From: an uncultured Polyangiaceae bacterium | GTDB taxonomy: Bacteria; Myxococcota_A; Polyangia; Polyangiales; Polyangiaceae | Assembly: GCA_964404725.1 (NCBI GenBank) | Contig: CAYOLF010000025.1 | Span: forward strand, 896 to 64,895 | Length of the DNA stretch: 64,000 bases | Reading direction: 5' to 3' | Shown here: positions 2,621-61,545 of the stretch, piece after piece | How the letters are laid out: every line of letters starts with the position of its first letter | Position numbering within the stretch: position 1 is the first letter of the stretch | Program-made: the position numbers and the translations under genes | The notes under the pieces: model-generated | What the model was told of the DNA's origin: nothing | Databases searched by the model: none | What the model saw: the letters and a program-made list of their open reading frames with translations, nothing else

Positions 2621-4254
<1,634 letters not shown>

Positions 4255-4984: not shown

Positions 4985-7900
4985 TCACCGGTGCCGGCCG
5001 CCGCCCCGGGTCGCGCGCCGGCGGCGCCGCGTCGTCGCGCTCGCCACGAGCAGCAGGAGCCACGCGGCCCCGCTCGGCGTGCCCTGTCTTCGATCGCGCC
5101 GACCCGGGGCGCTCGCACAGTCACACCCGCCGCCGCGGGGCAGGAGTTGGGGGGCGGGGGTCGCGGGAAGCTCCCACTCGTCCTCGGGGATGCAGCGGCC
5201 GTCGTCGTCGATGGGGAGCGGGGGCGCGTCGCCGCGCGCACGGCGTCCCGGCAGCTCCGTGGTCATCGAGCCCGTATTCGCCGGGTCGTGCCGCTGGGTG
5301 GGCCAGGGGCTCACCGCGTCGGCGGGGGCGTCGGTGCGCCAGAGATGGACCCAGCCGGCGCGGGTCACGACGGCGACCTCGAGGCGCCCGTCCCCATCGA
5401 GATCGCCGACGGCCGGCGCGGCCGCGACCCACTGGCCCGTGCGCTTGGGCCATCCCTCCGCCTCGCGACCGCAGGCGTCGATGGCATGCACCAGGTTCCC
5501 CTCCGTCCCCACGATCATCTCCGGGTAGTCGTCGCCGGTCAGATCTGCGATCGCCGCGCCTCCGAGCCAGGTCAGGCCCTCGATCGCGGCGGGGCTTCCC
5601 GGCAGCATCTCGCCGGTGCGGCCGCTCCAGAAGGCGAGCAGCTGCGTCGCCGGGCCTTCGCCCCAGCCGCCGCTCGCGACGCGCTCGGCGTCGCTCAGCA
5701 GCGACCCGGTCGCGACGACGTCGAGCACGCCGTCTTGGTCGAGATCCCCGAGCGCAGGGACCGACAGGAGCGGCACCATCGGCGAGCTCGGATCGACGGT
5801 CGCGTCGGCGCCGAAGCGGCCGGTGTATTCGATCCCCCGGGCCCCCGTGCGCGGATCGCGGAGCGGCAGGGCCTCATTGGGGAGATCGCCGGGGAGCTCC
5901 TGGTCGCCGGGCGTCGCGGGGAGGATCCAGGGGGGGGTCGCCGTGGTCTGCAGCACCGCTTCGGGCCGCCCGTCGTCGTCGAAGTCCCCCGCCGCCGAGG
6001 TCGCGCGGGCGCCGGATCCCGCGCCGCGCAGCAGCGACCAGGACGGCGGCTCTACGGGCCAACCGTCGAGCGGCGCGGCCGACGCGCCGTTGCCGCGCCC
6101 GTCGATCAGGAAGAAGCGCGCCGTCCCGTCGTCGATGCGCTCGGCTCCGGTAACGAGATCGGGGATCCCGTCGCCGGTGAAGTCGGCGACCGTCGGCGTG
6201 TCGAAGGGACCGAACGCGGCGAGCTCGTCGGGGCCGACGAGGGTCACCGGCCAGCCCCCCACGGCGGTGCCGTCGCCATGGAGGGCGTGCACCCGCCCGT
6301 CGAAGCCGACCACCAGGATCTCGAGCCCCGGCGAGGGGGCGAGGTCGGCGAGGACCGGGCTCGAGAAGAGGTCGCGTGGTCGATACGCGGGCGGGCCGGC
6401 GCAGGCGCCGGCGCAGGGCCGCTCCACGTCGGGCAGGCGGCGCGGCCACCCCGGCCGGAGCTCGCCCTCGACGTTCACGACGTAGAGCTGCCCGAGTCGG
6501 CTCGCGACGACCAGGTCGGGCGAGCCATCACCGTCGACGTCCCCGATCGCCGGGAGGGTCCCCACGCTCTCCCGCAGCAGCGCGGGGTTGATCCCGGAGG
6601 TGCTCCCGTAAGCGGCGCCGCGCGGCTCGCCGTCGGCGGCGGTCTGGAACGGGAAGCCCGCCAGCGGACGGGCCTCGCCCGAGGCGAAGCTCCACGCGTG
6701 CACGGCGCCGCTTGTCGTCGCGACGACGAGCTCGGGTAGGCCGTCGCCGTCGAGGTCACCGAGCTGCGGCGCCGCGGCGCCGGCGCCCACGACCGCGCGC
6801 GGGAACCCGCGGAACGCGGCGCCGTCGCGCTCGATGGTGAGCGGACGCCGGAGCTCGGCGGTGACGTCGCCCGTGGGATCGCCGTAGTGCGCGGTGGCGG
6901 TGACGCGCAGGGTGATGGTCGTCGCCTCCTCGCCATGCGGGCCGTCCGGGTCGGGTGCGTGCGTGGGGTCGATGGTGCGGGCGTCGAGGCGCGCGAGCGG
7001 GGTCCCGTCGCCGCTCACCGTCGTGGCTGCGAGGCCCGTCCGCTCGGCGACGAGCCGGAACGCCGTCGCCTCTGGCTGCACCCCCGGCGCCCACTCGATG
7101 CGGTAGTCGTAGGTCCGCGCGCGGCGCGCGCTCACCTTTCCGATCACGTCGATCGCGCTCGCGACTCGATCCGCGCCGAGCACGGCGAAGGGCGGGGGCG
7201 ACGTCAGGTCGACCTCGGGCGGGATCCGCCCGGCGATGACCGCAGTCACCGCGCGGCTCGCGTTGACCCGACCGAATCCGAAGCGCTGGTCGAACCCGGG
7301 TTGCGACCAGGCGAGGGCCGCCGCCGCGCTCCGCGATTCGGCCACGTCCACGTCGTCGGCGGTCGTCGTCAAGAGCTGGAGGAGCTCGCCCGGGGTCACG
7401 CGCGGCGCCGTGTCGCCGGCGGCGAGCGCCGCCGAGCGCACGAGCCCCGCGATGCCGGCGACCAGGCCCACCCCATCCGGAGGGCAGGTCCGCGACGGCG
7501 CGGAGAGGAGTCGGCGTCCGCCGAAGTTGCTGCAGGGGCTCACGGCGAGGAAGGTCGTCGCCGTGGTGCTGTCGGCACCGGGCCCCCCGAGGGTGATGGC
7601 GCCGACCGGTAGCGTGCGGGCGAGCGCGCTGGGGTCCGCCGGGCGACGCGTCCCCTCGTCGCCGGGGCTCGTCACCACCAGGGTCCCCACCGCCCAGGCG
7701 TAGTCCACCGCCGCCGCGAGGTGCGGCGAAGTTCCCAGCGTGTCCCGCGCCGCCGCCACCGCGGTGGCGTCCTGGTCGGCGGCGTAGGCGATCGCCTTGC
7801 CGAGGCGCTGCGGCTCGACGGGGCCGGCCGTTCCGACCCGGAGCGGCAGCAGGCGGCAGGCCGGGCAGGCGCCAGCGCGCCCCTGCCCGTCGTTGGTGGA

Positions 7901-56761: not shown

Positions 56762-56869
56762 AGCGGGGGCGCCCGGCGCGCCTGCGACGGCCGGCGTCGC
56801 AGGGTCGTGGCAAGCTCCGCTCCACGGGTGGCGGCCGCTCCGGGAGTGTTCCCCGGCCCGCGGCGGCAC

Positions 56870-57004
56870 CCTAGAGCACCGATCAGGTTGCCGACAGCCA
56901 CGGAGGCCTGGAGAACGTCTCCCTGGCACCACTGGTTGCCAGGGGCGAGGAGACGTTCTCCAGGCCTCCTCTGGCGAGATCTGCTCCCGGTTCGGTGCTC
57001 TAGG
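56870..57004. repeat. Nested perfect inverted repeats (13-bp outer, 21-bp inner, 6-bp innermost arms)
   Basis: CCTAGAGCACCGA (56870-82) pairs with TCGGTGCTCTAGG (56992-57004). GGAGGCCTGGAGAACGTCTCC (56902-22) pairs with GGAGACGTTCTCCAGGCCTCC (56949-69). CTGGCA (56923-28) pairs with TGCCAG (56937-42). All were checked by hand reverse-complementing. Confidence 0.9.
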
Positions 57005-57007
57005 TCG

Positions 57008-57048
57008 TTGATTTGTCGCAGCAATCAACCTGATTGCTGCTCTAGAAT
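57008..57048 (+). promoter_or_regulatory. AT-rich dyad region and -10-like TAGAAT immediately upstream of sbcD
   Basis: GCAGCAATCA-acc-TGATTGCTGC (57018-57040, perfect 10-bp arms). An overlapping TTGATT(57008-13)/AATCAA(57023-28) pair. TAGAAT at 57043-48, 7 nt before the sbcD ATG. The sequence features are certain; their function is inferred. Confidence 0.4.
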
Positions 57049-57055
57049 CCTGGCG

Positions 57056-58339
57056 ATGCTCCTGCTGCACACCTCCGACTGGCACCTCGGGCTCGACCTC
57101 GCCGGTCACGACCGGCTCGCGGAGCAGGCGCGCATCCTCGACTGGCTGCGCGGGCAGTGCCAGGAGCTCGGCGTTGATGCGCTGCTGGTCGCCGGCGACG
57201 TGTTCGACGTCGCCAACCCATCGAGCGCCGCCCAGCGCTTGCTGGCGGACTTCCTCGTCGACCTCCGTCGTGACTGCCCGCGCATCACCGTCATCCTGAC
57301 GGGGGGCAACCACGACTCCGCGCTGCGGCTCGAGATCGCACGCCCCTACGGCCAGGCGCTCGGGCGGATCCACCTGGTCGGCGGGCTCGACGAGCGGGCG
57401 CCGGACGTGGAGGACAAGGCGGTGATCGTGCTCCGCGACGGCGTTGGCGCGGCGCTCGGCGCCTGTCTGGCGGTGCCGTTCATGCGGGTCGGCGACCTCG
57501 ACTGCCGGCCCGCCGAGGGCGAGCCGCTCGCGCGGGCCTACGAGCGCAGCCTCGCCGCCTTCTACGGGCGTCTGCGCCGGCGGGCCCGGGAGCTCGCCCC
57601 CGGCAAGCCCGTCGTGGGCATGGGGCACCTCACGCTGAGCCGGGGCGAGAAGTGCGGGAGCGAGCAACTCCTCGTCGGCGGCATCGACGGGATCGGCGCG
57701 GACGCGATCGCCGAGGGGCTGGACTACCTCGCCCTCGGGCACCTGCACCGGGGCCAGCAGGTCGGCTCGCCACGGATCCGCTACAGCGGCAGCCCCCTGA
57801 GCATCGACTTCGACGAGCGCCGGTACCCGCACCAGGTGCTCTTGGTGCGGCTCGAGGGGCCGGCGGCGGAGGGAGCTGCCGCGGAGCTCACGGTGACGGC
57901 GCTCGCGGTGCCCCAGGCGGTCCCGCTGCTGCGCCTCCCCGAGGCGGCGGGGACCTGGGAGGACCTCGAGCGTGCCGTCGCGGAGGTGCCCTGGCAGGAC
58001 CACGCCGCGCTCCCGAGCGCGCTCCAGCCACTCGTGGAGCTGCAGGTCATCGATGACGGGACCGTCGGGGATCTGCCGGCCCGGGTGGAGGCGCTCTGCC
58101 GCGACAAGCCACTGCGCCTGGTGCGCTCGCTCCGACTGCTGCGTCCGGGCGGGGACGCTCCCGCCGGGGAGGCTGGCGCGGAGAGCACGCTGGCGCTCAC
58201 GCTCGGCTCGGACACGGCGCCCTTCCAGCTCTTCTCGACCGCGTGGGCGCGCAAGTACGGCTCGTCCCCGCCGCCGGAGCTCGCGGCCGCCTTCGAGGAG
58301 GTCGTGGCCCAGGTCCGGACGGGGGGGGAGCGCTCGTGA
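57056..58339 (+). CDS. sbcD: Nuclease SbcCD, subunit D (Mre11-like)
   Basis: I re-set the start to ATG 57056. MLLLHTSDWHLG, LVAGDVFD, GGNHD, GHLH. Confidence 0.92.
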   Translation: MLLLHTSDWHLGLDLAGHDRLAEQARILDWLRGQCQELGVDALLVAGDVFDVANPSSAAQRLLADFLVDLRRDCPRITVILTGGNHDSALRLEIARPYGQALGRIHLVGGLDERAPDVEDKAVIVLRDGVGAALGACLAVPFMRVGDLDCRPAEGEPLARAYERSLAAFYGRLRRRARELAPGKPVVGMGHLTLSRGEKCGSEQLLVGGIDGIGADAIAEGLDYLALGHLHRGQQVGSPRIRYSGSPLSIDFDERRYPHQVLLVRLEGPAAEGAAAELTVTALAVPQAVPLLRLPEAAGTWEDLERAVAEVPWQDHAALPSALQPLVELQVIDDGTVGDLPARVEALCRDKPLRLVRSLRLLRPGGDAPAGEAGAESTLALTLGSDTAPFQLFSTAWARKYGSSPPPELAAAFEEVVAQVRTGGERS

Positions 58340-61300
58340 GGATCCTGTCCATCAGCGGCGAGAACGTCGCCTCGCTCGGTCGCTTCACGGTGCGGCTGGA
58401 CCAGGAGCCGCTGCGGTCGGCCGGCATCTTTGCCATCGTCGGGCCCACCGGGGCGGGGAAGAGCTCGCTGCTCGACGCCCTGTGCCTGGCGCTCTATCAC
58501 CAGGTCCCCCGGCTCGCGGACGCCGTCGCGCAGGGGGTCACCTTTCAGAGCGCCCTCGGCGCGGTCAGCATCAAGGACGCGGCGCACCTGGTTCGGCGCG
58601 GCACCCGCACCGCCTTCGCCGAGGTCGAGTTCGTCGCCGGCGACGGGGCGACCTACCGGGCTCGCTGGGGCTACCGGGCCCCGAGGCGCAAGGGGGCGGC
58701 CCCACAGGAGGAGACCTGGCTCGCCGACGCCGTGTCCGGCGAGGTCCTCTGCGATCGCAAGAAGGAGTGCGCGGAGCGCATCCAGGGGCTCCTGGGGCTC
58801 GACTTCGCCCAGTTCACCCGGACCGTGCTCCTCGCCCAGGGGCAGTTCGCGGCGTTCCTCAAGAGTAACGTCGCCGAAGAGCGCGCCACGATCCTGGAGC
58901 AGCTCACCGGGACCGAGCTCTACACCCGGATCGGCAAGGCCATCTCCGAGCGCAAGGGAGCGGAGACGCACCGCCTCGGCGAGCTCCGCGAACGGCGCTT
59001 CGCGATCCCGCTGCTCGGAACGGAGGAGCGCACGGAGGCCCAGGCCGCGCGCGCGCGCGTCGCGGCGGAGCTCCTCGCCATCGCCGGCCCCGCCGAGCGG
59101 GTTGAGGGCGCGCGCCAGCTCGCGGTCGAGCGGCAGCGCGCCGAGGCCGAGGAGGCCAGCGTCAGACCCGCGCTGGACGAGGCAGCAGCGCAGATCGCGG
59201 CGCTCGCTCCCCAGGGGGCGGCGCTCGCGGGGGCGCAGGCGGTGCTCGAGCAGCGCTGGCAGGCGCTGCAGCCTGAGCTCGATCGCGCCATCGGGCTCGA
59301 CACCCGGATCGCCACCCTGAGCGCGGAGCTCGCCGCCCAGAGGGACGCGCTCGCCCGGCAGCGCCAGGCGCAGCTCGCGCGGGAGGAGCAGCTCGCGCGG
59401 GCGCGCGAGGACCTCGGGCGGCGTGAACGCGAGCACGGCGAGCTCGAGGAATGGCTTGCCGCTCGGGCCCACCTCGCGCCGCTGGCGCGCGAGCGCCGGT
59501 TCGTCGCCGAGCAGCTCGGGTGCTACCTCGCGCTGCACCGCCTTCGGCTCGAGCTCGGGGAGCGCCTCGAGCAGGCCCGGGCCGCGCTGCCCGCGGCGGT
59601 CGCCGCCGAGGACGGCGTGCGCCTGCGGATCGCGGAGGTCGCGGGCCGGCTCGTCGGAGTCGAGGTCGCGCGGCTACCGGGGAGGCTGGAGGAGCTCGCG
59701 CGGCGCGAGCGGCAGCTCGATCTCGGCGGCGCCATCGACGCGGCTCGCCAGCGGCGGGACGACGCCGAGCGCGTGGCCGCCGGGCTGGCCCCCGACCTCG
59801 CCGCGGCGAACGGGCGCGTCGAGCGTGCCGAGCAGGCCTACGGCGCGGGGGTGGGGGTCACGGAGGGCGCGGTTGCGCTGCTGCGCGCGCGGCTCGAGGA
59901 GGGTCAGCCCTGCCCCGTGTGCGGCGCGACGGGCCACCCGTACCGGGCGTTCACCGAGGCGGCGCTGCGGGAGCAGGTGGAGGCGCTGCGGGGCGAGCGC
60001 GACGCGGCGGTCGCCGAGCGCGACGCCCTCCGGGAGCAGGAGCAGCGCGCGCGCGCCGGGCAAGGCCAGGCGGACGAGGAGCTCGCGCGCCTCGAGCCCG
60101 CCCGGCAGGCCGTCCGGGTCGAGGAGCCGGAGGCGCTCGCGTGCGCGTCGCCGGACGCCGTCGCGGAACTCCGCGCGCAGCTCCAGGCCTGGCTCCAGGC
60201 GAGCCAGGCGCTGCCGGCGCTCGAGCTCGAGCTCGAGCAGCGCTCCGGGGAGCTCCGGCGGCTCCGGGAGTCGATCGCGCACCTGGAGGATGACGCCCGG
60301 TCGAGCGAGGAGGGACGGGGGGAGGCGGAGCGGAAGCTCGCACCGCTCTGGGCCGTCGCCGCGTGGAGGGCGGAGCTCGAGGCGCGGGGGGAGCCGTTTT
60401 TCGAGGAGCAGCGCGCGGCGCTGGAGCAGCACGCGGCCACCGAGCAGGCCGCCGGCGAGCTCCGCCTCGCCCTCGAGCCGCTCGCGCGCGCCGTCGAGGG
60501 CCAGGTCGCCGAGGTGAAGGCCGTGGCCGCCGAGCTCGCGCGCCAGGACGAGCAGCACGCGGCGCGGGCGACCGAGGTCGCGGCCGTGGAGGCGGAGCGG
60601 CGGCAGGTGCTCGAGGGCGAGGCGGTCGCGCTCGTTCGCGCGCGCTGGCAGGGCGAGCTCGAGGCGGCGCGCCAGTCACGGAACGAGCTCGAGACGGCGC
60701 TCGGTCAGGCCCGGGAGGCGCGCACAGGGCTCGCGACCCGGTCGGCGGCGGCGCAGGCCGCCGCCGCGCAGGCGACCCGGTCGCTCGCGGAGCTTGGACC
60801 CGACTGCGCGCGGGCGCTCGAGCCGCTCGCGCTCGAGGTGGGGCCGGCACCGGTCGACTTCGCCGCGACGCCGGGCGCGGAGCTGCTCGCGTGGCTGACG
60901 CGCGCCCAGCAGGGGCTCGACGCCTGGCGCGAGGCCCTGCAGAGCGAGGCCGGCGCGCTCGCCGAGCGGCTCCGGCAGGACGACGAGCGGCGCGCCGAGG
61001 GGACCCGCCTCGAGGGCGAGATCGCAGCCCAGCAGGAGGTGACCGGGCGGTGGGAACAGCTCTACCAGCTCCTCGGGGTCGGTGAGGGCAAGGCGTTCCG
61101 CACCCTCGCGCAGCAGCTCTCGCTCGAGCTGCTCCTGGTGCAGACCAACCGGCACCTCACCGCCATCACCCCTCGCTACGAGCTCCGGCAGCTCCCGGCG
61201 TCGATGCACTTCGTGGTGGTGGACCACGACAGCTACGACGCGGAGCGCCCCGTGCACACCCTGTCCGGCGGCGAGACCTTCGTTGTCTCCCTCGCGCTCG

Positions 61301-61545
61301 CGCTCGGCCTGAGCGCGCTGGTGAGCGGCGACCACGCGATCGAGACGCTCTTCATCGACGAGGGGTTCGGCAGCCTCGACGGCGACACCCTGCGCCACGT
61401 GATGCGGGCGCTCGACGCCCTGCACAGCCAGGGGCGCAAGGTCGGGCTCGTCACCCACGTGGAGGAGATGAAGGAGCGCATCCCGGTGCGCATCGAGATC
61501 CGCCGGGTGGGGCCGGGTCTGAGCGAGGTCTGCCTGGTCGGCTAG
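58336..61545 (+). CDS. sbcC: Nuclease SbcCD, subunit C (Rad50-like ATPase)
   Basis: GTG 58336 overlaps the sbcD stop (GTGA). Walker A GPTGAGKSS, long coiled coil, zinc hook CPVCG, signature LSGGETF, Walker B LFIDEGFG. Confidence 0.92.
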   Translation: MRILSISGENVASLGRFTVRLDQEPLRSAGIFAIVGPTGAGKSSLLDALCLALYHQVPRLADAVAQGVTFQSALGAVSIKDAAHLVRRGTRTAFAEVEFVAGDGATYRARWGYRAPRRKGAAPQEETWLADAVSGEVLCDRKKECAERIQGLLGLDFAQFTRTVLLAQGQFAAFLKSNVAEERATILEQLTGTELYTRIGKAISERKGAETHRLGELRERRFAIPLLGTEERTEAQAARARVAAELLAIAGPAERVEGARQLAVERQRAEAEEASVRPALDEAAAQIAALAPQGAALAGAQAVLEQRWQALQPELDRAIGLDTRIATLSAELAAQRDALARQRQAQLAREEQLARAREDLGRREREHGELEEWLAARAHLAPLARERRFVAEQLGCYLALHRLRLELGERLEQARAALPAAVAAEDGVRLRIAEVAGRLVGVEVARLPGRLEELARRERQLDLGGAIDAARQRRDDAERVAAGLAPDLAAANGRVERAEQAYGAGVGVTEGAVALLRARLEEGQPCPVCGATGHPYRAFTEAALREQVEALRGERDAAVAERDALREQEQRARAGQGQADEELARLEPARQAVRVEEPEALACASPDAVAELRAQLQAWLQASQALPALELELEQRSGELRRLRESIAHLEDDARSSEEGRGEAERKLAPLWAVAAWRAELEARGEPFFEEQRAALEQHAATEQAAGELRLALEPLARAVEGQVAEVKAVAAELARQDEQHAARATEVAAVEAERRQVLEGEAVALVRARWQGELEAARQSRNELETALGQAREARTGLATRSAAAQAAAAQATRSLAELGPDCARALEPLALEVGPAPVDFAATPGAELLAWLTRAQQGLDAWREALQSEAGALAERLRQDDERRAEGTRLEGEIAAQQEVTGRWEQLYQLLGVGEGKAFRTLAQQLSLELLLVQTNRHLTAITPRYELRQLPASMHFVVVDHDSYDAERPVHTLSGGETFVVSLALALGLSALVSGDHAIETLFIDEGFGSLDGDTLRHVMRALDALHSQGRKVGLVTHVEEMKERIPVRIEIRRVGPGLSEVCLVG

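Follow-up and report, generated by a model that had tools for sequence, protein, structure and literature searches.

A nested palindrome is located directly upstream of sbcDC, the genes for the nuclease of hairpins and cruciforms, in the DNA of an uncultured Polyangiaceae bacterium, and the question raised by this locus is whether such a structure controls, or is sensed by, the enzyme encoded next to it. The preliminary description, made from the sequence of the window (the whole stretch of 64 kb analyzed herein), had placed the palindrome at 56870-57004 and had proposed a structured leader or RNA, an operator array, a REP/MITE-like element or a self-sensing substrate of SbcCD.

Structure and limits of the palindrome

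The repeat search of the window recovered a perfect inverted repeat of 21 nt, with 100% complementarity between 56902-56922 and 56949-56969, and outer perfect arms of 13 nt (56870-56882 and 56992-57004), the latter being the core of a 25-nt repeat of 80% (56870-94 and 56980-57004); both pairs of arms therefore lie where they had been placed. The innermost arms are also present, with a length of 8 nt (56921-28 and 56937-44) instead of the 6 bp originally given, and overlap the 21-nt arm by 2 nt. Although the arms are real, the extent of 135 bp was too small. The same structure continues beyond the edge at 57004 with a 10-bp hairpin (57018-27 and 57031-40) and one more end repeat, the third, at 57026-57045, which is complementary to 56871-56890 at 18 of 20 positions. 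The unit as a whole covers 56871-57045, measures 175 bp including the CTAG on both sides, and carries no gene of its own (for the parts see Table 1).

The dyad was considered to be far beyond chance, and this view holds: the 21-mer, with up to three mismatches allowed, occurs at only two places in the 64 kb against a chance expectation of 0.01, and two matches were reached in none of 100 shuffles. Upon folding of both strands, as had been suggested as a check, the z-scores were better than those of shuffles, with -9.5 for RNA of the plus strand, -8.4 for RNA of the minus strand and -10.8 for DNA. The motif CTAGAGCA was found in exactly three copies in the window, all inside the element region, and CTAG is depleted, with 20 sites in the window against 69 expected from dinucleotide-preserving shuffles, in agreement with the earlier remark that the rare CTAG occurs three times within this motif. 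Among the 20 CTAG sites, three belong to the element and one forms the stop codon of sbcC at 61542-45.

The search of the region against Rfam 15 gave no family at the gathering score; the best match, mir-3150 with 33.7 bits against 100, was of the generic miRNA-hairpin type on both strands and is regarded as spurious. The scan for intrinsic terminators detected no site on either strand, no stem is followed by a T-run, and the promoter scan of the region detected no promoter-like site. The statement that no coding feature explains the palindrome is correct, and the ORFs over the element are only an antisense shadow and an in-frame upstream extension of sbcD; the latter is the plus-strand ORF from 56807, which had also been taken for a shadow. 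The start of sbcD at 57056 was fixed by alignment, its N-terminus MLLLHTSDWHLG lining up with those of the relatives.

Table 1. Parts of the element upstream of sbcD and the neighboring genes, in positions of the window
Feature	Position	Strand	Evidence or remark
Left CTAG target-site copy (target-site duplication)	56871..56874		Single CTAG/CTGG at the empty sites of relatives
Left terminal inverted repeat (IRL) TAGAGCACCGATCAGGTTGC	56872..56891	+	19/20 match to the ends of IS1182-type elements of about 1.7 kb, TAGAGCACCGATCAGGTTGA
Central hairpin (21-bp perfect stem, 26-nt loop)	56902..56969		Repeat search, folds, family covariation
15-nt hairpin-tip insertion	56926..56940		Alignment columns 62-76, filled in the window row only
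Internal end-like repeat (IRR type) CCCGGTTCGGTGCT	56986..56999	-	CTAGAGCACCGAACCGG (its reverse complement plus the neighboring CTAG) agrees with the IS right ends, TAGAGCACCGAACAGGTTGA
Internal CTAG, junction of units A and B	57000..57003		Extra DNA inserted exactly here in other copies
Unit B, 38-bp mini-element (hairpin 57018-27 / 57031-40 and right terminal repeat 57026-57041)	57004..57041		Kept in all full-length copies
Right CTAG target-site copy	57042..57045		10 nt before the ATG of sbcD
sbcD, neighbor gene outside the element	57056..58339	+	Pfam Metallophos and SbcD_C
sbcC, downstream of sbcD	58336-61545		Pfam, tblastn

Empty sites and dispersed copies

The protein search with SbcD gave close relatives of 86-87% identity and more distant ones of 61-62%. 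The two closest are L001 (GCA_964480725.1, an uncultured Polyangiaceae MAG with 86% SbcD identity) and L004 (a JGI metagenome contig with 87%). Upon alignment of the sbcD upstream regions of these two with that of the window, a clean insertion of 171 bp, bounded by CTAGA, was observed in the window, with both flanks aligned to L004 and L001: the window reads ...GGCGGCACCCTAGA before and ATCCTGGCGATG after the insertion, where L004 reads ...GGGACCCTAGACTGCTCGGCATG and L001 ...GGCACCCTGGGATCCTCACGATG. The empty site has a single CCCTAGA in L004 and a single CCCTGGG in L001, and the window has CTAG on both sides. In L004, about 100 bp upstream of the insertion point is conserved with the window and the element is missing; in L001, sbcD begins 36 bp after the upstream gene. 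Since both flanks are syntenic, a chimeric assembly is ruled out. The element is also missing at the orthologous site of the more distant L005 and L006. The locus is thus polymorphic for the insertion, and the absence of the element before sbcD in both L001 and L004 speaks against a conserved role linked to sbcD.

Three side observations were made on these alignments. The stretch of about 87 bp just upstream of the element (56773-56860), which is bounded by CCCGGCG and CCCGCGGCG and includes a 9-bp perfect hairpin (56781-89 and 56795-803), is present also in L004 and absent from L001; as judged from the alignment, this difference may reflect another indel or, alternatively, the loss of the stretch from L001 by deletion between short repeats. 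The gene call for sbcD in L004 (6001-7362) gives 453 aa, 26 aa longer than those of the relatives, and is probably over-extended, the alignment putting the real start at 6079. L005, of 62% SbcD identity, carries a 111-bp copy of the element lacking the hairpin at 3607-3717, in another intergenic region 2.3 kb upstream of its sbcD, and this proximity is probably due to chance, as copies of the element are dense in that MAG.

Copies of the element are dispersed over many loci. The scan with the end motif TARAGCASCRATCAGGTTG, performed on one genome per species, identified at least 89 genome blocks, mostly from Polyangiaceae MAGs; among the matches listed, more than 60 blocks were from GCA_016933275.1 and six from CAYZQO01, the genome of the 86% relative with the empty sbcD site. 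Many of the end-motif matches are no more than about 100 bp away from a contig end, as is the case for repeats that break assemblies. By nhmmer with one canonical copy, 94 non-overlapping family matches, 52 of them full length, were detected in the DNA fetched for analysis, and the window copy (56872-57044) aligned end to end with the full 158-nt query (E = 3e-23). The window copy is 90% identical to L026, which is at another locus of CAYZQO01; its identity to the median copy is about 80%. The window of 64 kb itself has this one MITE copy and no transposase. Of the 183 loci derived from the pattern among the matches listed, none has sbcC or sbcD, and with the dispersal at so many loci the proposed link to sbcDC finds no support.

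The copies have a common architecture. In the alignment of 46 copies, the canonical element is 158 bp from TA to TA and is ordered as the left end TAGAGCACCGATCAGGTTGCC, the central hairpin, the internal repeat GGTTCGGTGCTCTAG, a small hairpin (GCAGCAATCA-ACC-TGATTGCTGC) and the right end. The terminal inverted repeats of about 20 nt are conserved among the 46 copies, the left one being nearly invariant. CTAG is on the left flank in 34, on the right flank in 33 and on both sides in 23 of these copies, and the other flanks are mostly single-base variants. As judged from this alignment, the palindromes described in the window are features of the family except for the innermost one. The 15-nt insertion at the hairpin tip is private to the window copy (1/46), with an exact placement in the loop that is ambiguous by a few bases, and the innermost 8-bp arms exist because this insertion created them. 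The insertion is palindromic with its surroundings (CCCTGGCA...TGCCAGGG).

The internal IRR-type repeat and the following CTAG form the right arm of the outer palindrome, and close unit A (56871-57003). Unit A alone, with exact ends and flanked by CTAG, was found at L039, L069 and L049, and unit B alone, of about 40 bp, at L095 and L015. Extra DNA of about 150 bp is located exactly at the internal CTAG between A and B in L025, L074, L077, L020 and L068, and tandem copies with one common CTAG were found in L036 (4798-5111). The element is thus a composite, in which unit A with a left-type and a right-type end is followed by unit B, and the CTAG sequences of the element itself serve as targets for further insertions.

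RNAalifold recovered the central stem, the closure between left end and internal repeat, and the hairpin of unit B. Within the family alignment, 17 of the 19 pairs of the central stem have pairing-preserving changes on both sides, with 90.7% of the cells in pairs, a share that falls to 37-50% when the partners are slid; the observed values were unmatched by shuffles. The stems of subfamilies, such as GGCAGCGCTGGAAACGCGTCC, GGAGGCCTGGAGAACGTCTCC and GGCGCCGCTGAAGACGCACCC, each have their own complement, and unrelated MITE subfamilies with the same ends have their own near-perfect hairpins of 20-35 bp. The covariation, as read from the alignment, shows some constraint on the element beyond its ends, and pairing of the stems could be maintained either by selection acting on the element or mechanically, for instance through correction of one arm by the other. 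Upon informal inspection of G-U versus A-C mismatches in the stem, both kinds were found to occur, and the folding strand is not indicated. Derivatives of 111 bp without the hairpin are present at at least four loci and suggest that the stem may be dispensable for movement; alternatively, recurrent deletion between short CTGGA repeats could have given rise to these copies. That the long central hairpin is a selected functional structure of DNA or RNA, aiding the spread or persistence of the element, and that a hairpin unit in front of sbcD couples expression of the nuclease to the structure it cuts, or SbcCD polices such elements, is decidedly unlikely.

The transposase-bearing partner

Among the matches listed, the ORFs beside solo ends in the genome blocks included no transposase, and a fuzzy search of the genome blocks for end pairs 0.6-2.6 kb apart yielded no transposase element; the IS-like ends in L031, L062 and L091 stop at contig ends. 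The ends in L028, 1,037 bp apart, were considered as a candidate autonomous element and rejected, as each end belongs to a MITE copy of its own, with a small gene between the two. The pattern GAGCACCGATCAGGTTGATKCCRTA gave no match in the metagenome scan, and the more general TAGAGCACCGATCAGGTTGA gave 94 contigs. These metagenome contigs fall into two groups, one with many MITE subfamilies of unrelated interiors and the other with four elements of about 1.7 kb (L148, L168, L161 and L182).

Elements L148, L168 and L161 are 1699-1735 bp in length and carry the same 20-nt left end, an inverted right end of the TAGAGCACCGAACAGGTTGA type and flanking CTAG, together with a single ORF each of 521, 540 and 528 aa, respectively; L182 has a full-length match to the protein of L161. 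Against the NCBIfam model NF033551, 'IS1182 family transposase', the partner ORF scored 262.1 bits, just below the curated cutoff of 270, with E = 1e-77 over model positions 24-487 of 488, and it also matched DDE_Tnp_1_6, DDE_Tnp_1 and DUF772 of Pfam. Homologues of 79-81% identity, named IS1182 family transposase by NCBI, are encoded in several Sorangium genomes. Sorangium sp. So ce295 (CP150324.1) has two copies (L190 and L191) with CTAG flanks and the end AGGACCGATCAGGTTGA, and the partner therefore exists within Polyangiaceae. All five IS copies checked are flanked by CTAG, and their right-end type matches the internal repeat of the MITE, so that unit A has one left-type and one right-type end. 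The ends and flanks of the MITE are thus found on elements that bear a transposase.

The transposase clade includes 7381 proteins at E <= 1e-60. An 85%-identical transposase was found in an Acidimicrobiales MAG, the clade thus crossing phyla, which suggests that horizontal transfer of the IS may be frequent. In both L190 and L191, a MITE from another subfamily, with a hairpin of the GGGAGGCGGGG type, abuts the right CTAG of the IS from about position 2030, the downstream sequence being identical in both, and the IS and the abutting MITE may move as one composite in So ce295.

Origin of the element and its rival readings

The best explanation of these observations, to which we assign a probability of about 0.9, is that 56871-57045 is a copy of an IS1182-related MITE that was moved in trans and inserted in front of sbcD. 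An IS of the IS1182 family would provide the DDE transposase, which would recognize the common 20-nt terminal repeats (TAGAGCACCGATCAGGTTG...) and move the MITE in trans, inserting it at the palindromic CTAG, after which CTAG would stand on both sides of the element. The copy would have landed in a CTAG 10 bp before the start of sbcD after the split from the relatives with 86-87% SbcD identity. The outer arms of the palindrome would then represent the left end and the internal right-end-type repeat of unit A of about 118 bp, the 21-bp arms the central hairpin of the family, and the innermost arms the private 15-nt insertion, and unit B of 38 bp, with its own small hairpin, would supply the actual right end. 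Among the options proposed at the outset, the MITE part of the REP/MITE-like one is thus supported, and it can be specified as an IS1182-related MITE by the ends, the empty sites and the dispersal.

Within this scheme, mobilization in trans is what we infer from the ends and flanks in common with the transposase-bearing elements. A duplication of 4 bp rather than 2 bp is also presumed, and as CTAG is palindromic and overlaps the repeat, the sequence alone would be the same for a duplication of 4 bp and of 2 bp (TA). The position of the insertion would be owing to target availability, CTAG being rare here, and not to function; the location beside the genes for a hairpin nuclease is most likely a coincidence, and the element is presumably neutral toward sbcDC.

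A cis-regulatory structure specific to sbcDC, be it a leader, an sRNA, an operator array of CTAGAGCA, or a hairpin or cruciform sensed by SbcCD, would agree with the location of the element 10 nt before the start codon of sbcD and with its very stable fold as both RNA and DNA, but is very improbable, because the element is absent at the orthologous sites of L001 and L004, and also of L005 and L006, and because the same sequence is present at dozens of unrelated loci, none with sbcCD. Further points against it are that the CTAGAGCA motifs are the terminal repeats of the element, and that only spurious miRNA-hairpin matches were found, with no Rfam family at threshold. With respect to a substrate of SbcCD, the palindromes employed in the in vivo studies in E. 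coli were a 246-bp interrupted and a 460-bp perfect one (PMC3315005, PMC4245961), and the 21-bp stem with a 26-nt spacer is several-fold shorter than these lengths, which are the lengths used rather than an established minimum. The empty orthologous sites and the dispersal altogether leave the structured leader, the operator array and the self-sensing substrate without support. Co-option of the MITE at this locus, by which the expression of sbcD would be altered through a block of read-through, processing of an RNA hairpin or supply of a promoter part, is unlikely. The distance of 36 bp between the upstream gene and sbcD in L001 makes read-through plausible, and such transcripts would now cross a very stable hairpin; MITE stem-loops were in fact proposed to affect transcript stability (PMC11578231). 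The right junction makes TAGAAT (57043-48) 7 nt before the ATG, and the empty site of L004 has TAGACT (6067-6072) at the same distance; TAGAAT, which was not called by the promoter scan, might serve as the -10 box of a leaderless sbcD transcript, restored when CTAG was duplicated. Against co-option, however, are the absence of a T-run after the hairpins, the empty terminator and promoter scans, and the lineage-specific insertion, so that there is no sign of selection at the site.

The identity of the mobile element has to be weighed as well. Duplication of TA with a preference for CTAG is the signature of IS630, and an element of the IS630/Tc1 type was the initial suspicion, which was dropped upon finding that the transposase-bearing elements with the same ends are of the IS1182 type. 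A few copies with a base other than C before TA or other than G after it (GTAG, ATAG, CTAC, CTAA) fit the 2-bp duplication expected for a Stowaway-like MITE of the IS630/Tc1-mariner type, for which CTAG would be merely preferred, but these odd flanks can be later mutations, since a similar number of copies has TA itself mutated (CCAG, CTCG, CTGG). As every transposase-bearing element found with these ends encodes a DDE protein of the IS1182 type, and the models hit by the partner ORFs are all of IS1182 or IS5-type DDE transposases, an origin from IS630 is hardly to be expected. The element is intergenic, GC-rich and a repeated palindrome, as would be a REP/BIME unit spread by RAYT, an IS200/IS605-like tyrosine transposase. 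To our knowledge, however, REPs have neither terminal inverted repeats nor target duplication, and a REP unit is about 20-40 bp long; the element here has 20-nt terminal inverted repeats, a duplicated CTAG and a unit length of 118-158 bp, and the autonomous element corresponding to it is an IS with a DDE transposase, leaving the REP/BIME assignment a negligible probability.

The assignment to an IS1182-related MITE is in line with known elements. ISPse1 of the IS1182 family is 1653 bp in length, with inverted repeats of 16/16 and a direct repeat of 4 bp (PMC3281130), and ISPsy36 of the same family is 1666 bp, with the palindromic tetranucleotide GGCC as the target (PMC8027508). The autonomous elements described above are similar to these two, with 1.70-1.74 kb, one DDE transposase of 521-540 aa, terminal inverted repeats and, presumably, a palindrome of 4 nt as the target; the window element differs from the IS1182-family ISs in lacking a transposase and in being a tenth of the size, and its target is CTAG instead of the GGCC of ISPsy36. 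A close parallel in form is MITEPye1 of Paracoccus yeei, an IS1182-derived MITE whose 18-bp ends are flanked by 4-bp repeats, for which a long stem-loop was predicted, and which is present in 1-3 copies per chromosome (PMC11578231). Both MITEPye1 and the window element are small, non-coding and intergenic, with IS1182-like terminal inverted repeats, a predicted long hairpin and flanking repeats that would be of 4 bp in the window element as well, but the window element is different in sequence, host phylum (Myxococcota) and target (CTAG), and its family is a composite of unit A and the 38-bp unit B, has a covarying hairpin, and accounts, among the matches listed, for upwards of 60 genome blocks of a single MAG.

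Structured MITEs of about 100-160 bp are also represented by the Correia elements of Neisseria, RUP of Streptococcus pneumoniae and ERIC of enterobacteria, which are non-coding, have terminal inverted repeats and long hairpins, are located beside genes and can affect transcripts. The window element resembles these as a hairpin-folding repeat of that size with terminal inverted repeats beside a gene, but the sequences and the partner transposases are unrelated.

For the sbcDC locus the meaning of these results is mainly negative, in that the palindrome is recently arrived mobile DNA and not a conserved control element, and it should therefore not be treated as a regulator of sbcDC without expression data. 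A literature search for MITEs in myxobacteria found nothing relevant, and the copies collected herein represent an abundant MITE superfamily, apparently not described before, which occurs in Polyangiaceae and in many metagenomes and is linked to a very widespread transposase of the IS1182 type. The traits of this superfamily are the targeting of CTAG where CTAG is rare, a modular A plus B organization with nested insertions at the internal CTAG, and covarying hairpins. Such elements break MAG assemblies, many copies being located at contig ends, and a genome scan may misread them as riboswitch-like leaders, operators or terminators.
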